DNA from: Lachnospiraceae bacterium
GTDB taxonomy: Bacteria > Bacillota > Clostridia > Lachnospirales > Lachnospiraceae
Reading direction: 5' to 3'
DNA: 58,720 nucleotides
Assembly (NCBI GenBank): GCA_017455005.1
Contig: JAFTBX010000034.1
Location: forward strand, 1-58,720
The translations under genes were made by a program, and so were the position numbers. Under the pieces are notes generated by a model. The model saw only the letters and a list, made by a program, of their open reading frames with translations. It was not told the DNA's origin and ran no database searches. This document shows positions 28,557 through 42,252 of the stretch, one piece after another; within the stretch, counting starts at the first letter, position 1; each line of letters starts with the position of its first letter.

Positions 28557-28641
28557 GGTACAGCAAGTATAATTCAATGTTATAAGAGATGCAATAGATA
28601 TTTTCTTAAGATTTTGTATGCCCAAAAATAACAAAAAATTG

Positions 28642-28670
28642 TTTATTAAATATCAAACTAATGATATACT
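28642..28670 (+). promoter_or_regulatory. Candidate promoter of the hyp-mbh block
   Basis: Extended -10 TGaTATACT (28662-28670) with a weak -35 TTTATT (28642-28647) at 17 nt. About 35 nt upstream of the hypF start. Confidence 0.35.
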
Positions 28671-28702
28671 CTTCATGAATCTTTGCGCAGCAGAGGTACT
28701 GA

Positions 28703-31084
28703 TTGAAAAAAATAGGTATCAAAATCAAAGTCAGCGGGATTGTTCAGGGGGTTGGTTTTCGGCCATTTATCCATAAACAGATCACTGACCATTGTTTGTG
28801 CGGATGGGTACGCAACACCAGCACCGGCTCCGAGCTGAGGCTGGAGGGCCCGGAAGACGAGGTCAGCCGATTCGTTGATGAACTTGGAACGAAGAAACCG
28901 GCACTGGCATTGATTGAAAGGATTGAGACGGAGATCTATGAGCCTCTGGAGGGGTTTACGGATTTCTCTATCATCATGTCCAAAGATGAGGAAGAGCATA
29001 ATACTCTGATCTCTCCCGACGTATGTACCTGCGATGACTGCCTGCGGGAGCTTTTTGATAGGCATGACCGCCGGTACAGATATCCGTTCATCAACTGTAC
29101 CAACTGTGGCCCCAGATTCACGATCATCCGGGACATTCCTTACGACCGGGCGAAGACGACCATGTCGTCTTTTCCGATGTGTAAGCTATGCCATGATGAG
29201 TATACGACGATCACCGACAGGCGTTACCACGCGCAGCCGGATTGTTGTCCGGACTGCGGACCGAGGCTTTTCTTCACGGATGAAGCGGGCAATGAAGTCC
29301 CCGGCGACGCCATCGCAAATGCGCTGCATATGCTGGAAGCAGGCGGTATCGTTGCGGTCAAGGGTCTGGGCGGTTTCCACCTTGCGTGCAGGGCGGACCT
29401 GCCGGAACTGGCATGGAAGCTGAGGAACCGCAAGCACCGGGATGAAAAGCCCTTCGCGCTGATGTGCGCGGATGTGGAAGAGGCCCGGAAATACTGCGAG
29501 ATCAGTGAGGCAGAAGAACGGATCCTGACTTCGCATCAGCGTCCCATCGTGCTGCTGAAGAAGCGGTGCGTGACCGGCGGAAGCGACGGAAAGACGAAGG
29601 GAGAGGGATCGGAGAGAGATACCGCGAACACGGATCCCTGCAGCATCCTTTCTCACCTGAGTGAGAACAGCCGGATCGGCGTGATGCTGCCGTATACGCC
29701 CGTACACTTCCTGCTGCTCCATGAGCACCTGAAGACACTGGTCATGACCAGCGCCAATCTTTCGGACCGGCCCATCATTTACCGCAATGAAGAGGCACTG
29801 AAAGAGCTTCACGGGATCGCGGACGGGTTTCTTCTGAACAACCGTGATATACATGTGCGCTGTGATGATTCGGTGCTGTGGGTGTTTGACGCTAAGACAT
29901 ACTTTGCGAGAAGATCGCGCGGCTATGTGCCGTACCCGCTGACGCTCAATGACACGGAAGGCCCGGATCTGAAGATCCTTGCGTGCGGCGCGGAACAGAA
30001 GGCAACATTTTCCTTAAGCAAAGGAAATCATGTTTTTTCGAGCCAGCACATCGGCGATCTGAAAAACATAGAGACTTACGATAACTTCGAGTTACAGATA
30101 AAGCACTTTGAAAAGCTGTTTGAGATCCGGTCGGAGATGCTGGTGTGTGATCTCCATCCCGACTATCTTTCCACGGGTTATGCCCAGGAGAGGACCGGGC
30201 GTGACGGACTGCCTCTTTTGCAGGTGCAGCACCATTACGCACATATGGCCTCCTGCATGGCGGATAACGGTCTGGATGAACCGGTCATCGGCATCGTCTG
30301 GGACGGCACTGGCCTCGGTACGGACGGCAAAGCCTGGGGAGGAGAGTTCCTTTCCGGAGACTTTAGCGGCTTTGAGCGGCGCGGCACGATCCGAGAGATC
30401 GCGCTGCCGGGCGGGGACAAGGCTGTTCATGAGATCTGGCGCATCGCGGTGTCGCTGCTTCATGATCTTCAGGAAAGCGCAAAGATCCTGAAAGGAATCG
30501 ATCCGCAGCAACTAAGCATTACCGAAAGGCAGCTTGCGGCAGGCATCAACTGCCCGCGTACGACAAGCATCGGAAGGCTTTTCGACGGCGTGAGCGCGCT
30601 GATCGGCATCCGTGAGACAGTTAGCTACGAGGGCCAGGGCGCGATCCTGCTGGAAGCGTCGGCAGCGGAAGGCTGTGACGAGGTTTACCCGTACAGCATC
30701 GTCTCATCAGAGGATCCCGGTTCACCGAAGTATATCTTCGATTACCGGCCGATGATCAGAGCTATGGTTGAGGATCTTTCGGAGGCGCCGGCAGAAACTA
30801 AGGTCAGGGAGCTGAAGCGCCGTATGGCGGCGAAGTTCATGAATACGCTCACTGCCATGGCTGCAGAGATGACGCTGAAGATCAGCGGGGACACCGGACT
30901 TCGAAAGGTCGTGCTTTCAGGCGGTTCGTTCCAGAACATGTATATCCTGGAACGTCTCAGCAAAAAGCTTCGCGCGGAAGGACTGGAGGTCTATACGCAC
31001 AGCCGTGCAGCCTGCAACGATGAGGGACTTTCGCTCGGCCAGCTGATGATCGCAAGGAAGCGCGGACGGGACGGCATCGTCTGA
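28703..31084 (+). CDS. hypF: [NiFe]-hydrogenase maturation carbamoyltransferase HypF
   Basis: N-terminal acylphosphatase domain (VSGIVQGVGFRPF), two CxxC-x18-CxxC zinc fingers (CDDC...CTNCGPR; CKLC...CPDCGPR), then YrdC-like and Kae1-like domains. TTG start after AGAGG. Confidence 0.92.
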   Translation: MKKIGIKIKVSGIVQGVGFRPFIHKQITDHCLCGWVRNTSTGSELRLEGPEDEVSRFVDELGTKKPALALIERIETEIYEPLEGFTDFSIIMSKDEEEHNTLISPDVCTCDDCLRELFDRHDRRYRYPFINCTNCGPRFTIIRDIPYDRAKTTMSSFPMCKLCHDEYTTITDRRYHAQPDCCPDCGPRLFFTDEAGNEVPGDAIANALHMLEAGGIVAVKGLGGFHLACRADLPELAWKLRNRKHRDEKPFALMCADVEEARKYCEISEAEERILTSHQRPIVLLKKRCVTGGSDGKTKGEGSERDTANTDPCSILSHLSENSRIGVMLPYTPVHFLLLHEHLKTLVMTSANLSDRPIIYRNEEALKELHGIADGFLLNNRDIHVRCDDSVLWVFDAKTYFARRSRGYVPYPLTLNDTEGPDLKILACGAEQKATFSLSKGNHVFSSQHIGDLKNIETYDNFELQIKHFEKLFEIRSEMLVCDLHPDYLSTGYAQERTGRDGLPLLQVQHHYAHMASCMADNGLDEPVIGIVWDGTGLGTDGKAWGGEFLSGDFSGFERRGTIREIALPGGDKAVHEIWRIAVSLLHDLQESAKILKGIDPQQLSITERQLAAGINCPRTTSIGRLFDGVSALIGIRETVSYEGQGAILLEASAAEGCDEVYPYSIVSSEDPGSPKYIFDYRPMIRAMVEDLSEAPAETKVRELKRRMAAKFMNTLTAMAAEMTLKISGDTGLRKVVLSGGSFQNMYILERLSKKLRAEGLEVYTHSRAACNDEGLSLGQLMIARKRGRDGIV

Positions 31085-31154
31085 TGATTTGTTATAGAAG
31101 AAACGGATCTTTGAGATCCATACTTATAGATTAGTTAACGAGGGTATATAGGAC

Positions 31155-31382
31155 ATGTGTCTTGCAGTACCATTGAGAATAAAGGAACTGGACGGTACGG
31201 ACGCGGTCGTGGAACGCGACGGCGTCAGCCGCAGAGTCAAGGTCAACTTCATACGCGAGCCCAAGGTGGGTGACTATGTCATGGTCCATGCGGGCTTCGC
31301 CATTGAAAAGGTGAGCAGCAAACAGGCAGAGGAGGATCTCGAGGCTTTCCATGAGCTGGAACAGGTCTTGAGTACGCTCTGA
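31155..31382 (+). CDS. hypC: Hydrogenase assembly chaperone HypC/HupF
   Basis: The MCLAVPLRI N-terminus (essential Cys2) is diagnostic. Confidence 0.92.
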   Translation: MCLAVPLRIKELDGTDAVVERDGVSRRVKVNFIREPKVGDYVMVHAGFAIEKVSSKQAEEDLEAFHELEQVLSTL

Positions 31383-32413
31383 TGGCACTGGATAAAAGCA
31401 AAACCTATCATCTGATGGAGGTCTGCGGCACCCACACGATGGCGATCGCCAAGTCCGGCATCCGCAACGTCCTGCCACAGTACATCCGCCTCGTCAGCGG
31501 CCCGGGCTGCCCGGTCTGCGTGACGCCGCCGGAAGTGATCGATGAGGCGCTCCGGCTGACCGAAAGGCCCAATGTGATCATCGCCACCTATGGCGATATG
31601 ATCCGGGTTCCCGGTTCAGTCAAGGGCGACAACCTTGCAAAGCGTTCCGCCATGGGCGCAAAGGTCCGCATCGTCTACTCCGCGATGGACGCGCTGGAGA
31701 TCGCGAAGGCGGAGCCGGAGAGCGAAGTCGTTTTCTTAGGCGTCGGATTTGAAACGTCGGCACCCGGCACGGCGACCTCGGTCGAGGAAGCAAAACGGCA
31801 GGGTATCGGCAACTACTCGGTCTTTTCCATGCTGAAGATGCTGGAGCCTTCGATCCGAGCGCTTGCCGCTGATCCGGAGTTCAACGTACAGGGCTTTATC
31901 TGCCCGGGACATGTTGCGGTCATTCTCGGCGAGCAGGGACTGAAGTTCTTTGAGGAACTGGGGCTGCCTGCAGTTATCGCCGGATTTGATACGGATGATA
32001 TCGTCAATGCAGTACGCATGCTGATGGTGCAGATCGCAAAGGGAGAAGCCCGGCTCGAGAACCAGTACACGGATGTGGTCCGCCCCGAGGGCAACCCGAT
32101 GGCGCGCGAGCTGATGGATAAGTTCCTGGTACCGAGAAAGGACATCTGGAGAGGGCTCGGCGAGATCGAACAAAGCGGTTACGGCCTTCGCCCGGAGTAT
32201 GCCGCATGGGATGCGGAACAGAAGTTCGATATACACTTCGGAAAGCCGGTGATCAAGACGGCCTGCCGCTGCGGCGACGTCGTCAAAGGCAAGCTTGACC
32301 CCATGCAGTGCCCGCTGTTCGGCACCGTATGTGTACCGGAGGATCCGGAGGGACCGTGCATGGTCTCCGCCGAAGGAGCCTGCGCGGCAGCCTATAAGTA
32401 CCGCGCGTTTTAA
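31382..32413 (+). CDS. hypD: Hydrogenase formation protein HypD
   Basis: MEVCGTHT, GPGCPVCVTP and C-terminal CxxC Fe-S motifs. Start overlaps the hypC stop (TGATG). Confidence 0.92.
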   Translation: MALDKSKTYHLMEVCGTHTMAIAKSGIRNVLPQYIRLVSGPGCPVCVTPPEVIDEALRLTERPNVIIATYGDMIRVPGSVKGDNLAKRSAMGAKVRIVYSAMDALEIAKAEPESEVVFLGVGFETSAPGTATSVEEAKRQGIGNYSVFSMLKMLEPSIRALAADPEFNVQGFICPGHVAVILGEQGLKFFEELGLPAVIAGFDTDDIVNAVRMLMVQIAKGEARLENQYTDVVRPEGNPMARELMDKFLVPRKDIWRGLGEIEQSGYGLRPEYAAWDAEQKFDIHFGKPVIKTACRCGDVVKGKLDPMQCPLFGTVCVPEDPEGPCMVSAEGACAAAYKYRAF

Positions 32414-32440
32414 TAACTACAGACATTAAGGATATATACA

Positions 32441-33445
32441 ATGGATAAATTCATTACGCTGGATTACGGCAGCGGCGGCAAGAAGACCTCCGCGCTGATC
32501 AGCGACATGATCCTGCCGCTTCTGAAGAACGAAGCACTGGAGGAACTGGGCGACGGAGCCGTCATTGACGGCGCGGAACGGCTCGTTTACTCCACCGACA
32601 GTTTTGTCGTAAGCCCGTATTTCTTTCCGGGCGGAGACATCGGCAAGCTTTCGGTCTGCGGCACGGTCAATGACATCAGCATGGCGGGCGGAGAGCCGAA
32701 GTACTTAAGCCTCGGCCTGATTATAGAAGAGGGCCTTCCCGTTGCGGACCTTAAGCGGATCATCGATTCGATCCGGGCTACCGCGGACAGGGCAGGCGTC
32801 CAGGTCGTCACCGGCGACACCAAGGTGGTGGAACGCGGAAGAGGCGACGGCATTTACATCAATACTTCAGGCATCGGTTTCTTAAGGACTCCGGGACTTT
32901 CGCCCCGCAGGATCCGGGAAGGCGATGCGGTGCTCGTTTCCGGCACGGTCGGAGATCACGGCACGGCAGTCATGCTCGCGAGAAATGAGCATCTCGTTCA
33001 GGCGGAACTTAAGTCCGACTGCGCGCCGCTTCATGAGATGGCGCTGGCGCTCGGTAAGGAACTGGGAGCGGACTTAAGAGTCCTGCGCGACCCGACGAGA
33101 GGAGGAATCGCGACAACGCTCAACGAGTTCATCGAAGACGGAAGATACGGCATCGAGATCAGGGAAAAGGATATCCCGGTCCTGCCGACCGTCAACATGG
33201 TCTCCGAGATCCTCGGACTCGATCCTTACTACACGGCGTGCGAAGGCCGCATGCTCGCGGTCGTTGATCCCGCTTCCGCCGACAAGGCACTGGAGATCCT
33301 CCACGGCTTTGAGGACGGAAGAGGAGCGGCTGTCATCGGAGAGGTGACGGCGGAGCATCCGGGCAAGCTCGTCATCCGCACCCCGATGGGCGGAGGACGC
33401 ATCGCGGCGAAGCTCAGCGGAGCGCAGCTGCCACGAATCTGTTAA
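32441..33445 (+). CDS. hypE: Hydrogenase expression/formation protein HypE
   Basis: AIR-synthase-like fold and the C-terminal PRIC motif (the Cys that is carbamoylated/cyanated). Confidence 0.92.
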   Translation: MDKFITLDYGSGGKKTSALISDMILPLLKNEALEELGDGAVIDGAERLVYSTDSFVVSPYFFPGGDIGKLSVCGTVNDISMAGGEPKYLSLGLIIEEGLPVADLKRIIDSIRATADRAGVQVVTGDTKVVERGRGDGIYINTSGIGFLRTPGLSPRRIREGDAVLVSGTVGDHGTAVMLARNEHLVQAELKSDCAPLHEMALALGKELGADLRVLRDPTRGGIATTLNEFIEDGRYGIEIREKDIPVLPTVNMVSEILGLDPYYTACEGRMLAVVDPASADKALEILHGFEDGRGAAVIGEVTAEHPGKLVIRTPMGGGRIAAKLSGAQLPRIC

Positions 33446-33525
33446 TTACGGAACTACAAGGCATCATCAGCCTTTGGTTTATAAATCAAGTAGCAACCAT
33501 TAATTATTAAGAAGGAGAAGGGATT

Positions 33526-33918
33526 ATGCAGGAATACAAAAGGATCAGCATCACCAAAGACGAAATCGTCCCGCTTGCTGAGAAAATGCGTAAGAACGGT
33601 GTGATCCTCGCCATGATCCACGGGTACCTCGATAAGAACGGTCTGCCGAATATCTCATATGAGTATCAGATCGATCCCGGTATCGAGTCCTACTACGTGG
33701 AAGGCGAGAAAGTCCTCCCGACGATCTCTCACATCTACGATCTGGCTGCAGAGTGGCCGGAGAGAGAGCTGAATGAGCTGATCGACATCACGTTCGAGGG
33801 ACTGGACACATCCAAGAGACTTTTCATGCCTGACAGCATGCTGGAGGGCCAGGGTCAGATCTTCGTCACACCGATGTCGGAGCTGATCGAGAAAGCACAT
33901 AAAAAGAAGGAGGACTAA
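33526..33918 (+). CDS. mbhK: Group-4 [NiFe]-hydrogenase NuoC-like subunit (MbhK-type)
   Basis: AAEWPERELNELIDITFEG matches the 30-kDa (NuoC) subunit signature. GAAGGAG SD. Confidence 0.75.
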   Translation: MQEYKRISITKDEIVPLAEKMRKNGVILAMIHGYLDKNGLPNISYEYQIDPGIESYYVEGEKVLPTISHIYDLAAEWPERELNELIDITFEGLDTSKRLFMPDSMLEGQGQIFVTPMSELIEKAHKKKED

Positions 33919-33921
33919 CAA

Positions 33922-35004
33922 GTGAGCTATATCGTTCCAATCGGACCGTATCATCCGTCACTGGAAGAGCCGGTCCATGCGAGGCTGATCACTGACGGTG
34001 AGCTCATCAGCGATGCCGAGGTATTTATCGGATACAACCATCGCGGTATTGAGAAGCTCTGCATGGAGAGAAACTTCATCCAGACACTGGTCCTGGTAGA
34101 GCGTGTCTGCGGCATCTGCTCGCACTCCCATGCCATGACCTATGCGATGACTCTGGAAGCAATCTCCGGCATCAAGGTCCCGAAGAAGGGTCAGTACATG
34201 CGCGTCATCACCGCCGAGCTGGAGAGACTGCATTCCCACTATCTGTGGCTGGGTATCGCGCTCCACATCATCGGCCACGACAGCCTGTTCATGCATACCT
34301 GGGATGACCGTGAAGCAATCATGGATATCCTGGAGGATCTGACGGGCAACCGTGTCAACTATGGTATGGTCACCTACGGCGGCTCAAGAAGAGACGTATC
34401 CGTAGAGCAGAAGGACCGTATCCTCAAGATGCTCGCTAAGATCGAAGACAGCCAGAACCGTCTCACCGAGTTCCTTCTTTCCGATAAGACAGTCGCGCTT
34501 CGTACACAGGGCGTAGGCGTTCTTACCACGGAAGACGCGATCCGCATCGGCGCGATCGGACCTCATGCGCGTGCTTCGAATGTACCGGTCGACGTCCGTA
34601 TCGACGCTCCGTACAGCTGCTACGACGAGTTCGAGTTCAACAAGGCAGTATTCCCGACCTGCGATGTCTTCGCAAGAGTCGTAGTCCGTTGCCTTGAGAA
34701 CATTGAAAGTATCAAGATCATCCGCCAGGCACTGGACAGCATGCCGGCAGGCCCCATCAATCTGGGCAACAAGATCCCGACCATCAAGCCGGGTGAGTAT
34801 ATGTGCAGACATGAGGCACCGCGCGGCCAGCTTTCCTACAAGGTCGTCACCAACGGCACCGACAAGAACGAGCGTGTAAGTATTCACGTTCCGACCTTCA
34901 AGAATGCGCCGACGATCCCGACCATGCTGAAAGGCAATTCCGTCGCTGACGCCGGACTGATCATCGCCTCCATCGACCCGTGCTTCTCATGCATGGACAG
35001 ATAA
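33922..35004 (+). CDS. mbhL: Group-4 [NiFe]-hydrogenase large (catalytic, NuoD-like) subunit (MbhL/EchE-type)
   Basis: N-terminal Ni-Fe ligand motif RVCGICSHSH and C-terminal DPCFSCMDR right at the end of the protein (no cleavable extension). GTG start 7 nt after GAAGGAGG. Confidence 0.88.
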   Translation: MSYIVPIGPYHPSLEEPVHARLITDGELISDAEVFIGYNHRGIEKLCMERNFIQTLVLVERVCGICSHSHAMTYAMTLEAISGIKVPKKGQYMRVITAELERLHSHYLWLGIALHIIGHDSLFMHTWDDREAIMDILEDLTGNRVNYGMVTYGGSRRDVSVEQKDRILKMLAKIEDSQNRLTEFLLSDKTVALRTQGVGVLTTEDAIRIGAIGPHARASNVPVDVRIDAPYSCYDEFEFNKAVFPTCDVFARVVVRCLENIESIKIIRQALDSMPAGPINLGNKIPTIKPGEYMCRHEAPRGQLSYKVVTNGTDKNERVSIHVPTFKNAPTIPTMLKGNSVADAGLIIASIDPCFSCMDR

Positions 35005-35018
35005 GGTAACCGGGCGGC

Positions 35019-35360
35019 ATGCACGAGCTGGTTATCGTTGAAGGGATCCTGGATGCAGTGATCCCGGAGGTCAAAAAGTACGACGTCGAGAAGATCCTCT
35101 CGATCCGGTTGAAGATCGGAGAGCTCTCGGGCGTGGTCCCGTCCTGTATCGAGGAGTATTTCGGGATCGCCGCCAAGGGAACGATCGCGGAAGGGGCGAA
35201 GATCATCATTGAGAAGACCCCCATCGAGATCGAGTGCAGAGACTGCGGCTTCAAAGGCATTATCACAAAGGGCACCTACCGCTGCCCGAAGTGCCAGAGC
35301 GCAGGCTTTAAGATCGTCTCAGGCAAGGAATATTTTGTGGACTCGGTCGAGGCCGAATAG
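35019..35360 (+). CDS. hypA: Hydrogenase nickel-insertion protein HypA
   Basis: MHE N-terminal Ni site and a zinc site CRDCG...CPKCQ; 113 aa. Confidence 0.9.
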   Translation: MHELVIVEGILDAVIPEVKKYDVEKILSIRLKIGELSGVVPSCIEEYFGIAAKGTIAEGAKIIIEKTPIEIECRDCGFKGIITKGTYRCPKCQSAGFKIVSGKEYFVDSVEAE

Positions 35361-35386
35361 TTAAATTTAATTCAGGAGGTACACCT

Positions 35387-35926
35387 GTGAAGAAAGCAAG
35401 TTCATCGGCGGTGTTATCTACAGCCATCGTATGTTATCTCTTCTGGCTGGTGATAACAGGACAGATCGTTTCGATCTTCCAAGGCGCTCCGTCCGTCCAG
35501 GTACTGATCGCAGGACTTGTGGTGAGTTTCCTGGTTGCTTTGTTCAGCGCGCGTTTCTTCATTCATGAGAAGCCGTTTTATCTGCTGAGCAAGCTTCCGA
35601 CTTATCTCTACTACTGCTTTGTGATCTTCCCGATCGAACTGTGGAAGGCCAATGTTGACGTTGCAAAGCGCGCATTGAACCCGTCACTGCCGATCAATCC
35701 GGGTATCGTCAAGATCCCGAGCGACATGAAGTCTGAGTATGGAAGAGCAATGCTCGCGAACTCCATCACCCTTACCCCGGGCACCATTACGATGGATATC
35801 ACCGAGGAAGGAGACCAGACCTACTACTACATCCACTGGATTGACGTTGCAAGCGCTGATCCCGCGGAAGCAGGCGAAGCTATTAAGGGCACCTTAGAGA
35901 AGTGGACAGGGAGGATTTGGGAATGA
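35387..35926 (+). CDS. mbhA: MrpE/MnhE-like membrane subunit (MbhA-type)
   Basis: MnhE-family pattern (ITLTPGTITMDI), N-terminal TM helices. GTG start 7 nt after AGGAGG. Confidence 0.7.
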   Translation: MKKASSSAVLSTAIVCYLFWLVITGQIVSIFQGAPSVQVLIAGLVVSFLVALFSARFFIHEKPFYLLSKLPTYLYYCFVIFPIELWKANVDVAKRALNPSLPINPGIVKIPSDMKSEYGRAMLANSITLTPGTITMDITEEGDQTYYYIHWIDVASADPAEAGEAIKGTLEKWTGRIWE

Positions 35927-36183
35927 TTATGCCAGAGTTACTGTTTTTCGCAGTTTGCTTCATCGTTCTGGCGCTCTGTCTCTTATTCAGACTGATCCAG
36001 GGCCCGAGCGTTGTGGACAGAGCCGTTACGGCAGACAGCATTGATATCCTCAGTGATATGGCGCTGATCCTGTTCGCGCTTTATTCCGGAAGATCCGTAT
36101 TCCTTGATATCGCGTTCATTACCGCGCTTCTCGGATTTATCGGTTCTACCATCGTTGCACGCTATCTGGAGGGAAGGCTATGA
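35923..36183 (+). CDS. mbhB: MrpF/MnhF-like membrane subunit (MbhB-type)
   Basis: ~86 aa, 3 TM. VVDRAVTADSIDIL is typical of MnhF. ATG 35923 overlaps the upstream stop (ATGA) after GGGAGG. Confidence 0.7.
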   Translation: MIMPELLFFAVCFIVLALCLLFRLIQGPSVVDRAVTADSIDILSDMALILFALYSGRSVFLDIAFITALLGFIGSTIVARYLEGRL

Positions 36184-36521
36184 GAATCGTAATAGATATT
36201 TTGATCGTCATCAGCATTTTCTTCGCATTTGCAGGCGTTGTCGGCATGCTTCGTATGCCTGATGCTTTCTGCAGAATGCAGTCCAGCACCAATATTGCCA
36301 CCCTTGGCGTACTTGGAGTTATTATTGCCGGCATACTGTACGCTGCCTTCTATCTTCATGACGGCGCGATGGCAGTGAAGCTGGTATTCATGGGTATTTT
36401 CTACATCATCACCAACCCGATCGCGGGTCATGCGATCTGCCGCGGCGGATACAAGCACGGCGTCCGTCCGGAGAAGAAGTATGAGGTAGACAAATACGGA
36501 GAGGATATGGTGGAAGAATAA
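36180..36521 (+). CDS. mbhC: MrpG/MnhG-like membrane subunit (MbhC-type)
   Basis: GMLRMPDAFCRMQSSTNIATLG is the MnhG signature. 4-nt start/stop overlap with the upstream gene. Confidence 0.75.
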   Translation: MRIVIDILIVISIFFAFAGVVGMLRMPDAFCRMQSSTNIATLGVLGVIIAGILYAAFYLHDGAMAVKLVFMGIFYIITNPIAGHAICRGGYKHGVRPEKKYEVDKYGEDMVEE

Positions 36522-36778
36522 TGAACGTCATGATCCTTTTAAATACCTTGGTCATCATCGGCATTCTTGTTTCCGCGGTCTGCGCGGTCATGTTTGAGAA
36601 TGTCCTTTCATCGGTCATCGCACTGGGCATCACCGGCGCATTCATGGCGCTGGAGTTCATCCTGCTGCAGGCACCGGACGTTGCGATCGCTGAGGCAGCG
36701 GTAGGCGCAGTCCTTTCCACCGCCATCTTCGTTATCGCCGTCAAGAAGACTACACCGAAGGAGGAGGAAGAGAGATGA
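36521..36778 (+). CDS. mbhD: DUF4040 / MrpB N-terminal-like membrane subunit (MbhD-type)
   Basis: 85 aa, 3 TM. ALEFILLQAPDVAIAEAAVG is typical of MbhD/DUF4040. 1-nt overlap with the upstream gene. Confidence 0.65.
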   Translation: MNVMILLNTLVIIGILVSAVCAVMFENVLSSVIALGITGAFMALEFILLQAPDVAIAEAAVGAVLSTAIFVIAVKKTTPKEEEER

Positions 36779-37131
36779 AAAGAACCATTACCGTTATGTC
36801 TCTTCTGATCATCCTGGTCTGCGGAATCTTTGCAGGACGCTATGCGTACGACAACATTCCGGTCACCTATGACGGAAGCAATTTCAATGTTGTAGATCTC
36901 TACAACAACCCGACAGTATATGATGAGTCCAACCCGGACGGCGTAGCCGACATCATTGTCAAGGAAAACCTTGAGAAGACTATGGCAGCGAACAACGTTG
37001 CGGCAGTCGTCTTTGACTTCCGTGGATACGATACTCTGGGCGAGTCCTTCATCCTGCTGACCGCGATTGCCGGATCCTTCGTGATCTTAAGCCGCGGCCA
37101 CAAGAAAGAAGAGAAGGGAGGCGAAGCATAA
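36775..37131 (+). CDS. mbhE: MnhB-domain membrane subunit (MbhE-type)
   Basis: VVFDFRGYDTLGESFILL is the MnhB-domain motif. 4-nt overlap with the upstream gene. Confidence 0.65.
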   Translation: MKRTITVMSLLIILVCGIFAGRYAYDNIPVTYDGSNFNVVDLYNNPTVYDESNPDGVADIIVKENLEKTMAANNVAAVVFDFRGYDTLGESFILLTAIAGSFVILSRGHKKEEKGGEA

Positions 37132-37742
37132 TGAAGTTTAAAGACGGAATCAAAGAGCAGAACGTCATTATCAAGTGCGGCGCCGATAAGTTCCTTCCCT
37201 TCGCACTGACTTTCGGTATCTACATCATCCTGTTCGGTACCGTATCTCCGGGCGGAGGATTCCAGGGCGGTGTCTGCGTGGCATCGGCAGCCCTGCTCCT
37301 GTATCTCGGTTACGGCTACAACATCGCAACCAAGGCGATCAACACCGAAGTCCTTCGTATCAACGAGGCAATCGGCGCATCCCTGTACGTTATTCTCGGT
37401 CTCTTAGGTATTGCGGCAGGCCTGAACTTTGCACGTAACATCTTCTTCGATATGGGCAATGTCGGCGATCTGCTTTCCGCAGGTACCATTACTTTCATGG
37501 GCTACGCAGTCGGCTACAAGGTCCTCTGTGGCGTCGGCTTCCTGCTTCTTCTGATGCTGGGCCTTCTGGCTCCGGATGCGGATGACGCGGATGCAGCTCC
37601 CGCACTTGAGGCGGCAGCACCGGCTGAGCTTCCCCTGGAAGAGACTGCAAGTGCAGTCCTTGAGACCGCAGCACCGGCAGCTGAGGCAGTGCCCGCAGCT
37701 ACGGAAGCTGCAGCAGCAGTAAAGGAGGAGGCAGCAGAATGA
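37131..37742 (+). CDS. mbhF: MrpB/MnhB-like membrane subunit (MbhF-type) with A/E/P-rich C-terminal tail
   Basis: The SPGGGFQGG motif is characteristic of MnhB. The last ~55 aa are low-complexity (APALEAAAPAE...). Confidence 0.65.
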   Translation: MKFKDGIKEQNVIIKCGADKFLPFALTFGIYIILFGTVSPGGGFQGGVCVASAALLLYLGYGYNIATKAINTEVLRINEAIGASLYVILGLLGIAAGLNFARNIFFDMGNVGDLLSAGTITFMGYAVGYKVLCGVGFLLLLMLGLLAPDADDADAAPALEAAAPAELPLEETASAVLETAAPAAEAVPAATEAAAAVKEEAAE

Positions 37743-38098
37743 TTTTAGTAAATTATATCGCTTCCATCATACTGATCGTCCTCGGACTTTACACAGTATG
37801 CACCAAAAAGAACCTGATCAAAGTAGTCCTGGGCCTCGGCATCGTCGATTACGGCGTAAACATGCTGATCGTCAGCCTTGGATTTAACGATGGCGGTACC
37901 GCTCCGATCTATCAGATGTCTGACCTTCTGAACGGCGTGGCTCCCAGCTTCTTTGTAGACCCGGTGCCGCAGGCACTGACTCTGACCAGCATCGTTATCG
38001 GCGCCTGCGTTGACGCAATGGCACTGTCCCTGGTCATCATGATCTACAGAAAGTATAAGTCCATCAATGCAGATGACGTAAGGAGGTTGCACGGATGA
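37739..38098 (+). CDS. mbhG: MrpC/NuoK-like membrane subunit (MbhG-type)
   Basis: 119 aa, 3 TM, NuoK/MnhC-like (LIKVVLGLGIVDYGVNMLIV; ALTLTSIVIGACV). 4-nt overlap with the upstream gene. Confidence 0.7.
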   Translation: MILVNYIASIILIVLGLYTVCTKKNLIKVVLGLGIVDYGVNMLIVSLGFNDGGTAPIYQMSDLLNGVAPSFFVDPVPQALTLTSIVIGACVDAMALSLVIMIYRKYKSINADDVRRLHG

Positions 38099-40005
38099 TA
38101 CAGCATTTTCCGGTATTAGCCGTTATGCTCCTGTTCCTGGGCGCGTTCTGTGTTGAGATCTTCGGATCCAACAACGCGGGCATCCGGAACACGATCGCTA
38201 TGCTGGCGGCAACCATTGCACTCGTACTTATTTATGCCCTGATCAAGCCCGTTATGATCGACGGCGAGATCATCAGTTACTGGATGGGTAACTGGGCACC
38301 TGTATCCGGCTATGCCATCGGTATCGGCTACGAAGTCGATGCGCTCAGCCTGTTCTTTGCGCTCCTGGTCGTTACGACTTTCTGGCTCAGCGGCGTTTAC
38401 TCCATGAGCTACATGGCAAAGGACCATCACCTCGGACATTACTACACCCTGTACCTGATGCTTTCCGGTTCTGTACTCGGTCTTGTAATGACGGGCGATA
38501 TCTTCAACATGTTCGTCATGATCGAGATCATGACCTTCGCGTCTGTCGCGCTGACCGCATTCCGTAATGAGAATGAGGGCACCCTCGAGGCAGGCTTCAA
38601 GTATCTGGTCATCGGTTCCATGGGTTCATCCTTTACCCTGACCGGTATCGCCCTGATCTACGGTCAGTGCCATACCCTGAACATGGCGCAGATCAGCGCT
38701 CAGCTCTGCACCGGCATGACCCCGACCACCATCATGGCATTTGCCCTGATCGTTGCAGGTTTCGGCGTTAAGAGCTACATCGTTCCGTTCCATACACCGG
38801 CAGCCGATGCTTACATGGTTGCTCCGACCTCTGTTTCCATGATCTTCTCAGGCATGGTCAACAAGGCTGGTGTTTACGGCATGATCAGAGTGCTCTACAT
38901 CATCTTCAGAGCGATGGACAAGTCCTCCGTACAGATGCTCGTTGTCATCTTCGGCGCAGTTACCATGTTCATCGGCGTCACCATGGCGCTTGCTCAGCAT
39001 GACTTCAAGCGTCTGCTGGCATTCCACTCCATTTCCCAGATCGGTTACGTTATCACCGCGATCGGTCTCGGAACCGCGCTGGGCATCACCGGCGGTCTGT
39101 TCCATGCCATGAACCACACCCTGTTCAAGGGTCTGCTGTTCCTGACTGCAGGCGCTGTTCTGTATGCTACCGGCACCACCAACCTCGACAAGCTCGGCGG
39201 TCTGTCCAAGAAGATGCCCAAGACCTGCATCTGCTTCCTGATCGGCGCATTCTCCATCTCGGGTCTGCCGCCCTTCAACGGATTCGTTTCCAAGTGGCTT
39301 GTCTACCAGGCAACCTACACCAAGGCAGTAGAGACCGGCAACTTCGTATACGCGATCGTTACCGTTGTTGCGCTGATCGTTTCTGTCATGACCCTGGCAT
39401 CCTTCATCAAGGTCACCCAGGCTGTATTCTTCGGCCAGCTTCCGGCTGAGCTTAAGAAGACCCAGGAAGTTCCGGCTTCCATGCTTGTTCCGATGTATCT
39501 TATGTCCGCTCTGTGCGTACTCTGCGGCATTTTCTACCCGATCGTGAACAAGTACCTGCTTCATCCGGCTACCGAGGCTACGCTCAATGTCACCAACTAC
39601 ATCGACAAGATGATGGGCGACGGCTACGCGGCTATGATGGGCGCTCAGAATATCGAAGTGGCTCCGGTACAGTTCAGCTACTGGAACCCGATCGTATGGC
39701 TGATCCTCTTTGTTATCATCTTTGTTGCGGCATTCCTTGTGATCACCGGTTCAAAGAGCAGCAGAGGACAGGTCCTCAATCCGGGCGTCAAGTATGATCC
39801 CAAGTACGCTACTTTCTTCTCAGGTGAAGAGGAGCTCTTCTCACAGGTCGGCGGATCTGATCTGTTCTGGGGCTTCAAGACAGACTGGAAGGGCTACTAC
39901 AAGGTCCTTGAAGGCCTGCACAGCGGTATCGTAACGGATTATGCCGGCTGGACCGTCATGGCGACTGCGATCATCACCGTTTGTATGTTTATCTTTATGC
40001 GTTAA
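38095..40005 (+). CDS. mbhH: MrpD/NuoL-N-like proton-conducting antiporter subunit (MbhH-type) with ~130-aa C-terminal extension
   Basis: Proton_antipo_M core (FHTPAADAYMVAPTSVSMIFSGMVNKAGVYG, HMLNHTLFKG-like HAMNHTLFKGLLFL). The extra C-terminal region has two hydrophobic helices. Confidence 0.8.
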   Translation: MIQHFPVLAVMLLFLGAFCVEIFGSNNAGIRNTIAMLAATIALVLIYALIKPVMIDGEIISYWMGNWAPVSGYAIGIGYEVDALSLFFALLVVTTFWLSGVYSMSYMAKDHHLGHYYTLYLMLSGSVLGLVMTGDIFNMFVMIEIMTFASVALTAFRNENEGTLEAGFKYLVIGSMGSSFTLTGIALIYGQCHTLNMAQISAQLCTGMTPTTIMAFALIVAGFGVKSYIVPFHTPAADAYMVAPTSVSMIFSGMVNKAGVYGMIRVLYIIFRAMDKSSVQMLVVIFGAVTMFIGVTMALAQHDFKRLLAFHSISQIGYVITAIGLGTALGITGGLFHAMNHTLFKGLLFLTAGAVLYATGTTNLDKLGGLSKKMPKTCICFLIGAFSISGLPPFNGFVSKWLVYQATYTKAVETGNFVYAIVTVVALIVSVMTLASFIKVTQAVFFGQLPAELKKTQEVPASMLVPMYLMSALCVLCGIFYPIVNKYLLHPATEATLNVTNYIDKMMGDGYAAMMGAQNIEVAPVQFSYWNPIVWLILFVIIFVAAFLVITGSKSSRGQVLNPGVKYDPKYATFFSGEEELFSQVGGSDLFWGFKTDWKGYYKVLEGLHSGIVTDYAGWTVMATAIITVCMFIFMR

Positions 40006-40020
40006 GGGGAGGGAAGGAAA

Positions 40021-40971
40021 ATGATTATATTGAGAAGTTTATTCTACATCCTGATTTTCCCGGGCGCACTGTTCACAGCCTGCTTCGGCCTGTTCCTCGC
40101 AGGCGTTGACCGTAAGGTCGTTGCCCGCATGCAGCATCGTATCGGACCGCCGTTAAGACAGCCCATGTACGATTTCTTCAAGCTGCTCGGCAAGGAAACC
40201 ATCATTCCGCACGCTGCCAATAAGATCGCATTCCTTGGCGCGCCGATCATCGGTTTTGTAAGCCTTGCCCTGATCATGCTCTTCATCCCGGTAGGCGGTC
40301 TCACCGCTTTCTCCGGCAATGCCGACATGATCGTTATCCTTTACCTCATCACGATCCCGGGCGTTGCCCTGATCGTAGGCGGTTCCTCCTCAGGTTCACC
40401 GTACGCAGGTATCGGTATCTCCCGTGAGATGGTTACCATGATGGCATACGAGCTTCCGTTCGTTCTGGTCCTTCTGGCAGTTGCCAGAAAGGCTGGCGGA
40501 AGTGAGCTGGCATTCTCCATGGAGCAGGTTGCAAACTGGCAGGCAGCCAACGGCAACATGCTGTTCCAGTGGAGCATGATCCCGGCAGCAATCGCTATGC
40601 TTCTGGTCGTTCCGGCCGAAGTCGGCACTCAGCCCTTCGACGTAGCGGAAGCGGAGACCGAGATCTGTGAAGGTCCCCTGATCGAGTACAGCGGTTCCGC
40701 GCTCGGCATGTTCAAGCTGAACAGCGCCATGAAGATGTTTGTTATGTCCGGACTGTTTGTTTCCCTGTTCCTGGGCGGCATCCGCACCGGATTCGTCGTA
40801 TGCGACGTCATCGTCTTCATCCTGCTCTGCATCGTCGTGACCATCCTCTGCATGTCCACGATCCACGCAGTTACCGCTCGTCTGAAGATCGAGCATCTGT
40901 TCAAGTTTTACTGGACATTTGTCGCGGGCATGGCACTCTGCAGCCTGATCCTTGTATGGTGCGGCTTATAA
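40021..40971 (+). CDS. mbhM: NuoH/HycD/EchB-like membrane subunit (MbhM-type)
   Basis: RKVVARMQHRIGPP and GSPYAGIGISREM motifs of the NuoH family; 8 TM-like segments. Confidence 0.82.
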   Translation: MIILRSLFYILIFPGALFTACFGLFLAGVDRKVVARMQHRIGPPLRQPMYDFFKLLGKETIIPHAANKIAFLGAPIIGFVSLALIMLFIPVGGLTAFSGNADMIVILYLITIPGVALIVGGSSSGSPYAGIGISREMVTMMAYELPFVLVLLAVARKAGGSELAFSMEQVANWQAANGNMLFQWSMIPAAIAMLLVVPAEVGTQPFDVAEAETEICEGPLIEYSGSALGMFKLNSAMKMFVMSGLFVSLFLGGIRTGFVVCDVIVFILLCIVVTILCMSTIHAVTARLKIEHLFKFYWTFVAGMALCSLILVWCGL

Positions 40972-40989
40972 TCGAGGAGGTAAGAAAGA

Positions 40990-41436
40990 ATGTTTAATAA
41001 ATTAATTAACGACAGCGCTTCGAAATCTCCCTGGCTCTACCATATCAACTCCGGTTCCTGCAACGGCTGCGATATCGAGCTGGTTGCATGCCTGACACCC
41101 CGTTATGATGCCGAGCGTTTCGGCTTCAAGCTGGCAGGTACCCCGAGACACGCGGATATCGTTGTCGTCTCCGGCCCGGTCACTTCTCAGTCCAAGGAGA
41201 GACTGATCCGTACTCTGGCACAGGTGCCGGAACCCAAGTGCGTTGTATCACTTGGTTCCTGCCCGAAGTCAGGCAATGTTTTCAAGGGAAGCTACTCCGT
41301 AGAGGCTCCGCTGGATGACTACTGCCATGTTGATGTTTCCGTCGCAGGCTGCACACCCAAGCCGGAAGCAATCATGGAAGGACTCTACAAGGCAGCCCTG
41401 ATTTTGAAAGAGAAGAGGGAGGCGATGCACAAATGA
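40990..41436 (+). CDS. mbhJ: [NiFe]-hydrogenase small subunit, NuoB-like (MbhJ-type)
   Basis: The NuoB Cys pattern for the proximal [4Fe-4S] cluster is present: GSCNGCDIE, GSCP, GCTPKPEAI. Confidence 0.85.
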   Translation: MFNKLINDSASKSPWLYHINSGSCNGCDIELVACLTPRYDAERFGFKLAGTPRHADIVVVSGPVTSQSKERLIRTLAQVPEPKCVVSLGSCPKSGNVFKGSYSVEAPLDDYCHVDVSVAGCTPKPEAIMEGLYKAALILKEKREAMHK

Positions 41437-42185
41437 TGTTCCCCTTTCTGAAGAAAGCTGTAACCAACGCATTCACCAAACCCAGCACGGAAGCATTTCC
41501 ATGTCCGGAAGCGGAAGGCCTCGGCAAGTACCGCGGCAGGATCGCTTTTGACGGCGAGAAGTGCGTAGACTGCGGCATGTGCATCAAGGTTTGCGCTCCG
41601 GCAGCGATCACGCTGGATCGTGAAGACGTAGAAGGCGGTCAGAATATCTGGCGTACCTTTGATCTGACCTCCTGTACCTTCTGCGCGACCTGCGCGGATT
41701 TCTGCGACGAGGGCGCGATTCAGATGACCACGGACTACCACATGGTAGGAACCAAGCACGAGGATCTCCTTGTCAAGGGCGTGACCTTCAAGAAAACCAT
41801 CATGGGCGAGCTCGAGTGCGATACCGACAATTGTATCTACTGCGGCCTTTGCGCGCGTAACTGCCCGCAGGGCGCGATCACTGTGGATCGTACCACCAAG
41901 ACCTGGCAGATCGATCACGAGAAGTGCGTAAAGTGCGGTATCTGTATCGGCAAGTGCCCGAAGAAGGTACTGAAGTTCGGCGAGCCGAAGCCGGAAGGCG
42001 TTGTCTTCGACGAGAGCAAGTGCGTATACTGCACGCTCTGCGCGAAGAAGTGCCCGGTCGGCGCGATCGAAGTAGACCGCCCGAACAAGACCTGGACGAT
42101 CAACCGCGAGACCTGCATCAAGTGCGGCGCCTGCGTAAAGGGCTGCCCGAAGCAGGCACTCTCCATGGGTCCGATCGAAGAGTAA
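41433..42185 (+). CDS. mbhN: Poly-ferredoxin electron-transfer subunit (MbhN/NuoI-related) with six CxxCxxCxxxC motifs
   Basis: Six motifs: CVDCGMCIKVC, CTFCATCADFC, CIYCGLCARNC, CVKCGICIGKC, CVYCTLCAKKC, CIKCGACVKGC. 4-nt overlap with mbhJ. Confidence 0.8.
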   Translation: MMFPFLKKAVTNAFTKPSTEAFPCPEAEGLGKYRGRIAFDGEKCVDCGMCIKVCAPAAITLDREDVEGGQNIWRTFDLTSCTFCATCADFCDEGAIQMTTDYHMVGTKHEDLLVKGVTFKKTIMGELECDTDNCIYCGLCARNCPQGAITVDRTTKTWQIDHEKCVKCGICIGKCPKKVLKFGEPKPEGVVFDESKCVYCTLCAKKCPVGAIEVDRPNKTWTINRETCIKCGACVKGCPKQALSMGPIEE

Positions 42186-42221
42186 AAGGTCATTACAAAA
42201 ACATAATTCCTTCTATTAACG

Positions 42222-42252
42222 GCGGCGCATACCTCAGGGTATGCGCCGTTTT
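42222..42252 (+). terminator. Rho-independent terminator of the hyp-mbh block
   Basis: CGGCGCATACC-tcag-GGTATGCGCCG followed by TTTTGTTG. Confidence 0.85.

Follow-up and report, generated by a model that had tools for sequence, protein, structure and literature searches.

Positions 28703–42185 on the forward strand of an uncultured rumen Lachnospiraceae genome form one operon, which, judged by homology, most likely encodes a ferredoxin-oxidizing, H2-evolving and ion-translocating membrane-bound [NiFe]-hydrogenase on the 14-subunit Mbh plan. All 14 Mbh subunits had counterparts: L, H, I, J, M, and A–G each matched their own chain of the Pyrococcus furiosus Mbh structure (PDB 6CFW), and K and N were assigned by Pfam and NCBIfam. 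The MbhA–N inventory of the original prediction was thus recovered, on 13 polypeptides, MbhH and MbhI forming a single fusion protein. The cluster belongs to a clade already catalogued, as group 4g, in many Clostridia, and the functions of this clade are predicted by homology.

Operon Organization and Maturation Genes

The block comprised 18 co-oriented ORFs, all intact, with Pfam and NCBIfam domain E-values of 1e-6 to 1e-134, well past chance. Their order was HypF, HypC, HypD, HypE, NuoC-like, [NiFe] large subunit, HypA, MnhE, MrpF, MnhG, MbhD, MbhE, MnhB, NuoK/MrpC, MrpD-like, NuoH, NuoB, and a poly-Fer4 protein. This domain content supported the prediction of an Mrp-linked group 4 [NiFe]-hydrogenase of Mbh architecture in one block with its maturases. 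The predicted boundaries and compact, co-oriented arrangement also held, with intergenic spacing of −25 to 80 nt, but 18 genes were counted instead of 19, and eight Mrp-like membrane genes instead of seven. The −25 overlap becomes a 4-nt ATGA overlap with mbhA if mbhB starts at ATG 35923. As predicted, no strong terminator preceded position ~42222: the site at 42221–42250 was the strongest terminator-like site within 27800–43000 and the only strong one. The tight coupling of the genes and this shared terminator indicated a single operon. Ahead of hypF, the consensus scan found no canonical −35/−10 pair, and a possible extended −10 element was recognized by eye. The features are as follows (6cfw, P. 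furiosus Mbh chains; 6u8y, MBS chains).

28662–28670, +, putative extended −10 promoter element TGATATACT, 33 nt upstream of the hypF start
28703–31084, +, hypF, carbamoyltransferase, 793 aa, TTG start; Pfam Acylphosphatase, zf-HYPF, Sua5, HypF_C; TIGR00143 777 bits (cut-off 466)
31155–31382, +, hypC, 75 aa, N-terminal MCLAVP; PF01455 1.6e-24; TIGR00074 above cut-off
31382–32413, +, hypD, 343 aa; PF01924 3.6e-134; TIGR00075 406 bits (cut-off 193)
32441–33445, +, hypE, 334 aa; AIRS and AIRS_C domains; TIGR02124 401 bits (cut-off 252)
33526–33918, +, mbhK-like, NuoC-like, 130 aa; PF00329 1.6e-8
33922–35004, +, mbhL-like catalytic [NiFe] large subunit, 360 aa; 6cfw_L (P. furiosus MbhL) E=1.2e-81, full length
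35019–35360, +, hypA, Ni metallochaperone, 113 aa, N-terminal MHE motif, two CxxC pairs; PF01155 4.4e-30; TIGR00100 93 bits (cut-off 88)
35387–35926, +, mbhA-like, MrpE type, 179 aa; PF01899 1e-39; 6cfw_A 7.7e-21; 6u8y_A 9.4e-24
35923–36183, +, mbhB-like, MrpF type, 86 aa from ATG 35923; PF04066; 6cfw_B 1.4e-10, with alignment
36180–36521, +, mbhC-like, MrpG type, 113 aa; PF03334 3.1e-19; 6u8y_C 3.9e-18; 6cfw_C 2.2e-8
36521–36778, +, mbhD-like, 85 aa; PF13244 MbhD 3.9e-20; 6cfw_D 4.1e-13, with alignment
36775–37131, +, mbhE-like, 118 aa; PF20501 MbhE 3.2e-6; 6cfw_E 7.7e-8
37131–37742, +, mbhF-like, MrpB type, 203 aa; PF04039 2.8e-21; 6cfw_F 1.2e-14
37739–38098, +, mbhG-like, MrpC/NuoK type, 119 aa; PF00420; 6cfw_G 1.8e-22; 6u8y_G 3.1e-29, with alignments
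38095–40005, +, mbhH-mbhI fusion, 636 aa; 6cfw_H 6.5e-90, with alignment
40021–40971, +, mbhM-like, NuoH type, 316 aa; PF00146 2.6e-71; 6cfw_M 3.3e-42
40990–41436, +, mbhJ-like small subunit, NuoB type, 148 aa; PF01058 6e-27; 6cfw_J 4e-48
41433–42185, +, mbhN-like with polyferredoxin tail, 250 aa; TIGR01971 NuoI over residues 10–115; FwdF and VhuB polyferredoxin matches; Pfam Fer4 families
42221–42250, +, intrinsic terminator at the operon end, 13-bp stem with 8 GC pairs, then a T-rich tail

Of the six Hyp maturases, the operon encodes five (HypF, C, D, E, and A), their identities resting on scores above the NCBIfam equivalog cut-offs. The hypA gene lay between mbhL and mbhA in all 80 related loci. 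No hypB was found in the cluster or anywhere in the window (the whole 58.7-kb stretch of DNA that was analyzed), and the hypA-mbhA gap, where relatives carry hypB, was only 26 nt. Among the related loci, 42 of 80 had hypB at this position and 38 species-level loci did not; cultured Caloramator and Clostridium have it directly after hypA, which gives 19 genes. Without hypB in the window, maturation would have to rely on a copy at another site or proceed independently of HypB. This absence is a peculiarity of the locus and was counted against the main reading.

Subunits of the Hydrogenase

The large subunit retained all four Ni-Fe ligands (Cys63, Cys66, Cys354, and Cys357), so the loss that a careful alignment might have revealed was not seen, and the Glu21 equivalent was also present. 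It ended in DPCFSCMDR with Arg360 as the last residue, leaving no extension to cleave, and the block contained no C-terminal endopeptidase gene, in agreement with the original prediction that no such protease is needed. The mbhK-like gene occupied the same position in every related locus extending that far. In MbhJ, the family pattern indicated that Cys24, Cys27, Cys91, and Cys121 are likely the ligands of the proximal [4Fe-4S] cluster.

The membrane arm kept many of the residues named for P. furiosus Mbh (PMC8679088). According to the alignments, these were the MbhH proton-path residues E143, K225, K256, H350, and K354, within the antiporter-like part of the fusion protein (residues 10–510), and the buried carboxylates MbhG-D37, MbhD-E69 (as part of a conserved APDVAIAEAAVGA motif), and MbhB-D35/D59. 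Several polar residues at the proposed Na+ sites differed from those of P. furiosus (MbhG H41 to Asn; MbhB N38 to Asp, T39 to Ile, and S68 to Gly); any assignment of the ion moved is therefore tentative, which was counted against the main reading. Although the mbhB ORF opens at GTG 35902, ATG 35923 is its likely start, and MbhB in relatives measured 84–87 aa. The MbhF protein carried a C-terminal tail of ~55 aa rich in Ala, Glu, and Pro; the MbhF proteins of relatives measured 146–249 aa. A separate mbhI gene was absent, as predicted, but MbhI was not lost: it made up the last ~110 residues of the MbhH-like protein, which is 636 aa long (MbhI part at residues ~527–632, nt ~39673–39990). The C-terminal 126 aa aligned to 6cfw_I residues 2–112 (E=8.4e-10), the sole PDB match, and the fusion (629–680 aa) was found in all relatives.

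The last subunit, a second peculiarity of the locus, combined a NuoI-like 2x[4Fe-4S] domain (residues 1 to ~120) with two extra 2x[4Fe-4S] ferredoxin units (residues ~125–187 and ~188–250), which were 56% identical to each other. Six CxxCxxCxxxC motifs were present, at 44, 81, 134, 165, 197, and 228. The MbhN proteins of relatives contained 2 to 10 motifs, that is, 0 to 4 extra units, often on Ala/Pro-rich linkers. We found no description, in the literature searched, of ferredoxin units fused in varying number to a NuoI-like subunit. Cultured Caloramator and Clostridium possess a plain two-cluster MbhN of 143–152 aa, so the clade's enzymes do not require the tail to function. The four extra clusters could accept electrons from a donor other than free ferredoxin, and this too was counted against the main reading.

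Relatives and Genomic Neighborhood

The large subunit shared 69 and 60% identity with two references labeled 4g in HydDB, 43% with Pyrococcus MbhL (4d), and about 40% with 4c/4e. It therefore falls under HydDB with 4g (Clostridium, Thermobrachium) rather than 4d. The order K-L-hypA-A..H/I-M-J-N was colinear in 80 of 80 related clostridial loci of rumen and gut origin, hosted by Lachnospiraceae and Oscillospiraceae, and was identical in the cultured Caloramator fervidus and in a locus of the C. paraputrificum type. A large Bacillota clade has this as its standard order; the predicted "non-archaeal" order does differ from mbhA–N of Thermococcales, but it is not unusual in bacteria. The large subunit clusters with a bacterial subgroup of the same organization, catalogued rather than well studied. 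The cluster is under purifying selection (dN/dS 0.06–0.29 against three relatives, with dS saturated). In Caloramator celer, a homologous 19-gene cluster was predicted in 2014 to be a ferredoxin-dependent MBH and the sole means of re-oxidizing ferredoxin with formation of H2 (PMC3986597). In 2019, group 4g was described as a rumen hydrogenase that is highly expressed but "functionally unresolved," with transcript RNA/DNA ratios among the highest in sheep rumen (PMC6776011), and it is polyphyletic (PMC13582414). The earlier view that such enzymes are poorly documented in Clostridia is thus true of their biochemistry but not of their cataloguing.

The predicted PFOR gene was present 4.5 kb upstream of the block (20506–24168). 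However, a divergent GntR-ABC-DUF6449 operon lay between them, and among the 80 related loci PFOR adjoined the cluster only in the one from the same species, so its linkage is incidental. The window contained no formate dehydrogenase, CO dehydrogenase, Wood-Ljungdahl, or nitrogenase genes.

Proposed Function and Comparison with Known Systems

Pyruvate oxidation and other fermentative steps would reduce ferredoxin, which would deliver electrons to the six-cluster MbhN-polyferredoxin subunit. From there they would travel via the [4Fe-4S] cluster of MbhJ to the MbhL Ni-Fe site and reduce protons to H2. The small free-energy drop would be coupled, conformationally and electrostatically, via MbhM and MbhI to MbhH, whose antiporter-like part holds the proton path, and to the Mrp-type MbhA–G module (H+/Na+ exchange), and the ion gradient would drive ATP synthesis. 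The ferredoxin donor, reaction direction, ion-translocation coupling, and ion moved are proposed from homology to P. furiosus Mbh and Thermoanaerobacter kivui Ech2, at 43% identity for the large subunit or less for the membrane subunits. Purified T. kivui Ech2, labeled 4g, couples ferredoxin-dependent H2 evolution to H+ translocation (PMC9356269).

The in vivo direction cannot be read from the sequence, which was counted against the main reading. The same enzyme might instead run in uptake, the ion gradient driving H2-dependent ferredoxin reduction for biosynthesis or CO2 reduction, as in the Ech of methanogens and acetogens. In vitro, enzymes of group 4 work in both directions, T. kivui Ech2 performs H2-dependent ferredoxin reduction (PMC9356269), and 4e/4g are listed as bidirectional, for 4g by prediction, in HydDB and a rumen study (PMC6776011). 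We regard uptake as unlikely, since the hosts are typical fermenters, a PFOR gene is nearby, and genes of neither the Wood-Ljungdahl pathway nor nitrogenase occur in the window. Rumen methanogens also hold H2 low, which favors H2 evolution. The polyferredoxin tail might alternatively wire the hydrogenase to a dedicated soluble dehydrogenase (PFOR, formate dehydrogenase, or an NAD(P)H-linked enzyme) as a "substrate hydrogenlyase." The four extra [4Fe-4S] motifs, and the 0–8 found in relatives, accord with this idea, since extra Fe-S connectors denote a specific partner in FHL and Coo: HycB connects FdhF, and CooF connects CooS. A conserved adjacent partner dehydrogenase, however, was found in none of the 80 loci, PFOR adjacency was confined to the same species, and cultured members do with the plain MbhN, making such wiring quite improbable.

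The missing hypB could also mean that, in this lineage, the cluster no longer works or is degenerating, given that 42 loci and the cultured relatives carry the gene. This is very improbable: every ORF is intact, the hypB-less state is common to 38 species-level loci, purifying selection is evident, and hypB may sit elsewhere in the genome. In E. coli, moreover, HypB deficiency is rescued by added nickel. An Mbx/Mbs-type sulfur or polysulfide reductase was suggested by the slightly higher scores of the Mrp-module subunits A, B, C, D, and G against MBS 6u8y than against Mbh 6cfw, by the Asn at MbhG position 41, shared with Mbs, and by an H-I type fusion known in MbsH' (PMC8165549). It is effectively refuted by the intact CxxC pairs, of whose four cysteines MBS retains only two (PMC8165549), and the five hyp genes inside the operon; the large subunit also matched MbhL at 1e-81 and MbsL at only 3e-39.

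The present Mbh-type enzyme is closest to the clostridial 4g "MBH-like" set (Caloramator celer TCEL_00187-00205, Caloramator fervidus, Clostridium paraputrificum, C. lundense, and Clostridiales bacterium NK3B98). They share the order hypFCDE-mbhK-L-hypA-...-mbhA-B-C-D-E-F-G-H/I-M-J-N, a 360-aa large subunit ending in DPCFSC(L/M)DR (60–69% identity), the MbhH-MbhI fusion, and the lack of a protease gene; the cultured members differ in having hypB and the short MbhN in place of the 250-aa six-cluster form. With P. furiosus Mbh (4d), the cluster shares the 14-subunit inventory, Mrp-type A–G, a single antiporter-like MbhH, MbhI, the catalytic and proton-path residues, and, in the deposited chain, no long extension past DPCxxCxxR. 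It differs in large-subunit identity (43%), in order (K-L first and M-J-N last, against A–N in Pyrococcus), in the H-I fusion, polyferredoxin tail, and hyp genes within the operon, and in its mesophilic bacterial host.

T. kivui Ech2, the only purified enzyme labeled 4g, was compared by its published description (PMC9356269). It resembles the present enzyme in its label, in having Fe-S clusters additional to those of the NuoI-like subunit (HycB2; seven predicted clusters), and in a ~69-kDa membrane subunit close in size to the H-I fusion, and Ech2 itself is ferredoxin-dependent and H+-translocating. It has, however, eight subunits and no MrpE/F/G/B-type module, and since 4g is polyphyletic the common label implies no close kinship. 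Ech-type 4e enzymes (Butyrivibrio, Clostridium thermocellum, and Methanosarcina) are likewise ferredoxin-coupled and energy-converting, with a ~360-aa large subunit lacking a C-terminal extension, but they have six subunits, no Mrp module, and 39–41% large-subunit identity (three references). Strings of 2x[4Fe-4S] units also serve energy-converting hydrogenases in the methanogen Eha/Ehb polyferredoxins, E. coli HycB, and CooF, whereas in the present cluster they form part of the NuoI-like polypeptide.

Structure and transcription of the operon

The original prediction placed a block of [NiFe]-hydrogenase and maturase genes at 28703-42185, and the block was found there, on the plus strand. It comprised 18 ORFs, and all of them were assigned to families (Pfam, NCBIfam).

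Features in the window
3219-3291: tRNA gene
20506-24168: PFOR gene
24415-28634 (-): GntR (PmtR/YtrA-like), ABC ATPase and DUF6449 membrane protein operon, abutting the hydrogenase cluster
28703-42185 (+): hyp and Mbh-type hydrogenase operon
35360-35387: hypA-mbhA junction
35387-38098 (+): genes of the small Mrp-module subunits
37581-37742 (+): C-terminal part of mbhF
41433-42185 (+): mbhN
42221-42250: intrinsic terminator, 13-bp hairpin
42393-42421: promoter-like site
42550-42618 (+): 22-codon Met/Cys-rich ORF
42993-43982: NlpA/MetQ-type lipoprotein gene
53842-53930: SAM riboswitch (Rfam RF00162, 57.7 bits)
54049-55230: S-adenosylmethionine synthetase gene
57039-58238: aldo/keto reductase fused to a C-terminal 4Fe-4S dicluster domain, near the window end

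The genes were arranged in the order of HypF, HypC, HypD, HypE, a 130-aa NuoC-like protein, the 360-aa [NiFe] large subunit and HypA, followed by MnhE-, MrpF-, MnhG-, MbhD-, MbhE-, MnhB- and NuoK/MrpC-like membrane proteins, and then by a 636-aa MrpD-like, a NuoH-like, a NuoB-like and a 250-aa poly-[4Fe-4S] protein. Their spacing ranged from 4-nt overlaps to 80 nt. The 25-nt overlap first seen between mbhA and mbhB vanished when the ATG at 35923 was taken as the mbhB start, which left an ATGA overlap and a product of 86 aa, the length in relatives. The hairpin was the sole strong intrinsic terminator within 27800-43000. The tight spacing and the single strong terminator indicated that the block is real; it is almost certainly transcribed as a single unit, which may have further promoters inside it. 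No canonical sigma-70 promoter was detected by scanning 5' of hypF or mbhK; an extended -10 was visible by eye only, 5' of hypF, and the hypE-mbhK spacer was ambiguous when checked for a promoter. No riboswitch or other RNA element in the cluster matched Rfam at the gathering score. The count of 19 genes first proposed was one too many: just two gaps exceeded 30 nt (70 and 80 nt), and both were without an ORF.

Downstream, the 22-codon ORF MKRLHTMTAMCMYMCGMMRRMY had a GGAGG ribosome-binding site and was preceded by the promoter-like site, a near-consensus TTGACA-17-TATCAT with TG; the lipoprotein gene lay 3' of it. A similar peptide, MKRDHTMMVMCMYMCGMMCRMD, was located 5' of the lipoprotein orthologue in a related locus (L002, 18702-18770). 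This ORF looks like a methionine-sensing leader peptide. The SAM riboswitch was directly 5' of the S-adenosylmethionine synthetase gene.

Subunit composition and key residues

The group-4 core was encoded together (PF01058, PF00329, PF00346/PF00374, PF00146, Fer4/TIGR01971 and PF00361; NuoB-, C-, D-, H-, I- and L/M/N-like). The large subunit aligned over its full length with chain L of the Pyrococcus furiosus Mbh structure 6cfw (1.2e-81) and also with HycE. The 636-aa protein matched chain H (6.5e-90), J and M matched their 6cfw counterparts at 4e-48 and 3.3e-42, and A through G matched the corresponding chains between 1e-8 and 1e-22. The Mrp-derived module was complete, with MrpE, F and G, the MbhD/E/F pieces of the MrpA C-terminus and MrpB, MrpC and one MrpD-like protein, each with matching Pfam families and 6cfw chains A-H. 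The proposed kind of enzyme, an Mrp-linked Mbh-type group-4 hydrogenase, was borne out.

MbhI, which in the Mbh architecture links the antiporter module to MbhM, indeed had no gene of its own, as had been noted, but its sequence was kept as a C-terminal fusion to the MbhH-like protein. Residues ~527-632 of the 636-aa protein aligned with residues 2-112 of 6cfw chain I (E=8.4e-10), the sole PDB match of this segment. Thus, all 14 Mbh subunits are carried by 13 polypeptides. The fusion was universal among relatives (629-680 aa), and a comparable arrangement is known from the archaeal sulfur reductase MBS, in which TMH15-16 of MbsH' correspond to these helices (PMC8165549).

Both Ni-Fe ligand motifs were present in the large subunit: L1 as RVCGICSHSH (Cys63, Cys66; criterion C[GS][ILV]C[AGNS]xxH) and L2 as DPCFSCMDR (Cys354, Cys357; criterion DPCxxC), the protein stopping at Arg360. 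No endopeptidase gene was found within the 58.7-kb window; the C-terminal extension is naturally missing in groups 4c, 4e and 4g (PMC7294309). Functional residues listed in an Mbh simulation study (PMC8679088) were checked on HMMER alignments. Equivalents were kept for MbhL Glu21, MbhH Glu143, Lys225, Lys256, His350 and Lys354, MbhG Asp37, MbhD Glu69, and MbhB Asp35 and Asp59, which indicated that the proton path through MbhH is intact, as is the buried carboxylate site where MbhG, D and B meet. Compared with P. furiosus, MbhG His41 was replaced by Asn, as in MBS, and MbhB Asn38, Thr39 and Ser68 by Asp, Ile and Gly.

Of the seven small subunits in the Mrp module, five (A, B, C, D and G) scored higher against MBS (6u8y) than against Mbh (6cfw), whereas the catalytic, NuoB-, NuoH- and MrpD-like subunits scored higher against Mbh. 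These split scores hint at modular ancestry. MbhF ended in a low-complexity Ala/Glu/Pro tail of ~55 residues, and the whole protein ranged from 146 to 249 aa among relatives.

Distribution, neighbourhood and predicted role

The large subunit was 99% identical to a protein of the dairy-cattle reticulum Lachnospiraceae MAG RGIG1140 (L001, the window's own species) and 71-97% identical to proteins of 79 further species-level genomes. Eighty loci were kept of 163 confirmed stretches, all from MAGs or uncultured-isolate assemblies. Their hosts belonged to Lachnospiraceae, Oscillospiraceae and other Clostridia, and they came from cattle, goat, sheep, buffalo, yak, deer, horse, human gut and other sources. 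When these loci were probed with the window proteins, the mbhK-L-hypA-mbhA...H/I-M-J-N run was colinear in all 80 and complete in 63, and hypFCDE stood directly 5' of the mbhK run in 45.

When a further search was started from the Clostridium lundense HydDB reference, it led to cultured carriers with a name: Clostridium liquoris, C. amylolyticum, C. paraputrificum, Haloimpatiens, Oceanirhabdus, Caloramator proteoclasticus, C. fervidus and C. mitchellensis. The locus of Caloramator fervidus contained 19 genes in the order hypF-C-D-E-K-L-hypA-hypB-A-B-C-D-E-F-G-H/I-M-J-N, and the C. paraputrificum-type locus was the same except for hypF. In Caloramator celer, for which the supplement gives the tag range alone, the 19 locus tags TCEL_00187-00205 fit this layout (PMC3986597). 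The gene order had been considered unusual and non-archaeal; its recurrence in 80 of 80 loci and in Caloramator and Clostridium showed that it is the standard of a bacterial clade.

The nineteenth gene of the cultured relatives is hypB, which was missing in the window. In the cultured species and in 42 of the 80 related loci, this gene, a CobW-type GTPase, was located directly 3' of hypA; it was missing in 37 loci besides the window, including all 17 closest relatives (L001-L017). The junction at 35360-35387 was compared with the comparison loci L083 (11432-12091) and L081 (11427-12077), which hold hypB. No HypB-like sequence was found in the 58.7-kb window by tblastn with two clostridial HypB queries; hypB may lie elsewhere in the genome.

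The PFOR gene fits the predicted physiology. However, the proposed PFOR-hydrogenase module did not hold up as a conserved unit: PFOR flanked the cluster only in the same-species locus L001, and the divergent GntR/ABC/DUF6449 operon stands between the two. Adjacency of the GntR operon recurred in four related loci (L002, L061, L073 and L074), whose large subunits were 73-76% identical and some of which lacked hypFDE on the 5' side; this is probably lineage synteny. A role of the GntR protein in regulating the hydrogenase was considered but is less likely, as the protein looks like a regulator of the PmtR/YtrA type that would control the ABC exporter beside it.

The best-supported function is predicted ferredoxin:H+ oxidoreduction coupled to ion translocation, for which we infer the electron donor, the reaction direction and H+ versus Na+. 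The analysis established that the set of parts is complete and conserved, that the catalytic and channel residues are intact, and that the genes form an operon that is widely conserved and under purifying selection (dN/dS of 0.06-0.29 in comparison with three hypB-less relatives, with dS saturated).

Methanogens in the rumen live mainly on the H2 that fermenters release, and the enzymes behind this release therefore cap enteric methane. In the rumen literature, H2 production has been assigned to [FeFe]-hydrogenases and Ech, and group 4g, with an RNA/DNA ratio among the highest, has been listed as "functionally unresolved" (PMC6776011). The window and the 80 colinear loci showed that the rumen "4g" enzyme is a full Mbh by architecture, which implies a respiratory route that yields ATP as electrons pass from ferredoxin to H2. 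Provided that the enzyme is active, H2 release would bring extra energy to many uncultured Lachnospiraceae and Oscillospiraceae, and their response to H2 partial pressure would differ from that of soluble-hydrogenase users. With the cultured hosts that exist (C. paraputrificum, Caloramator, strain NK3B98), the system also offers a bacterial, mesophilic model for the Mbh/complex-I ancestor. It matters most for the ecology of rumen H2, and because it points to cultured carriers that can be worked with.

MbhN tail and relationship to known hydrogenases

MbhN of cultured Clostridium and Caloramator was 143-152 aa long with two clusters, like archaeal MbhN. In comparison, the window MbhN had 250 aa and six CxxCxxCxxxC motifs, and its extra 125 aa consisted of two ferredoxin units that share 56% identity. 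The number of motifs across the 64 complete orthologues was 2 in 7 loci, 4 in 13, 6 in 27, 8 in 13 and 10 in 4; it shifted in steps of two among close relatives (e.g., loci L005, L029, L011 and L053), and Ala/Pro/Glu/Lys-rich linkers separated the ferredoxin units of the long forms. TRF found no DNA-level tandem repeat in mbhN; at 56% protein identity, the duplication is old. No description of this variable tail was found in the literature searched, which does not prove absence.

Two explanations were proposed for the tail. It may merely lengthen the electron wire. The other, which we consider rather unlikely, is that MbhN of the rumen/gut branch forms "beads-on-a-string", with 0-4 tandem 2x[4Fe-4S] units on a NuoI-like core, joined by flexible linkers in the longer versions, acting as tethered mobile ferredoxins that take electrons directly from PFOR or other oxidoreductases, and which with hypB loss would make a functionally distinct rumen Mbh variant. 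Such tethered ferredoxins would represent a previously undescribed channelling of low-potential electrons into a respiratory hydrogenase.

For classification, labelled references were taken from Table S1 of Greening et al. (2019; PMC6776011), and MbhL and HycE from PDB alignments. NK3B98 owes its 4g label to its best match, the Thermobrachium celere 4g reference.

Identity of the window large subunit to reference sequences
Clostridiales bacterium NK3B98 (labelled 4g): 69%
C. lundense 4g reference WP_027624751.1: 60%
P. furiosus MbhL (4d): 43%
4c: 41%
4e (three references): 39-41%
4h: 39%
HycE (4a): 39%
4i: 36%

In the neighbour-joining tree, the large subunit grouped with both 4g sequences; its proximity to 4g came from the labelled PMC6776011 sequences, and it did not cluster with the Thermococcales MbhL (4d). 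When 1.84 billion 50%-identity representatives were searched exhaustively with HMMER, the whole clade fell into a single cluster, whose representative was 74% identical, and the next full-length representatives outside it were at most 48% identical. The closest two named among ten looked up were an Anaerolineales MAG and a Methanoregula cluster, "membrane-bound hydrogenase subunit alpha". Unlike the window, the Anaerolineales locus had membrane genes followed by J-K-L-M-N-HycI, without MrpE/F/G, which indicated that the window's layout is clade-specific.

Other enzyme types fitted the operon poorly. An Ech-type (4e) enzyme has six subunits and no Mrp E/F/G module, vs. thirteen structural polypeptides and a full Mrp module here, and identity to the three Ech references was just 39-41%. 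An Mbx/Mbs sulfane-sulfur reductase, a type that has lost two of the four Ni-Fe cysteines and does not depend on Hyp maturases, was rejected on the four intact cysteines, the five hyp genes and the matches to MbsL and MbhL (3e-39 vs. 1e-81). A formate- or CO-linked (4a/4b/4c) enzyme was argued against by the lack of any formate dehydrogenase or CO dehydrogenase gene in the operon, the 58.7-kb window or the related-locus flanks, as probed with the window's genes.

In HydDB, 4g is a class whose members cluster loosely and whose role is undetermined (PMC5037454), and a 2026 study found it polyphyletic (PMC13582414). The only purified "4g" enzyme, Ech2 of T. kivui, has eight subunits and is without the Mrp E/F/G module (PMC9356269). 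In short, the window enzyme has the architecture of Mbh (4d) and would work like one, but its sequence places it in a separate Bacillota lineage that is filed under 4g. The system is of a known, widespread and already catalogued kind, in which the variable polyferredoxin tail might be the sole new feature.
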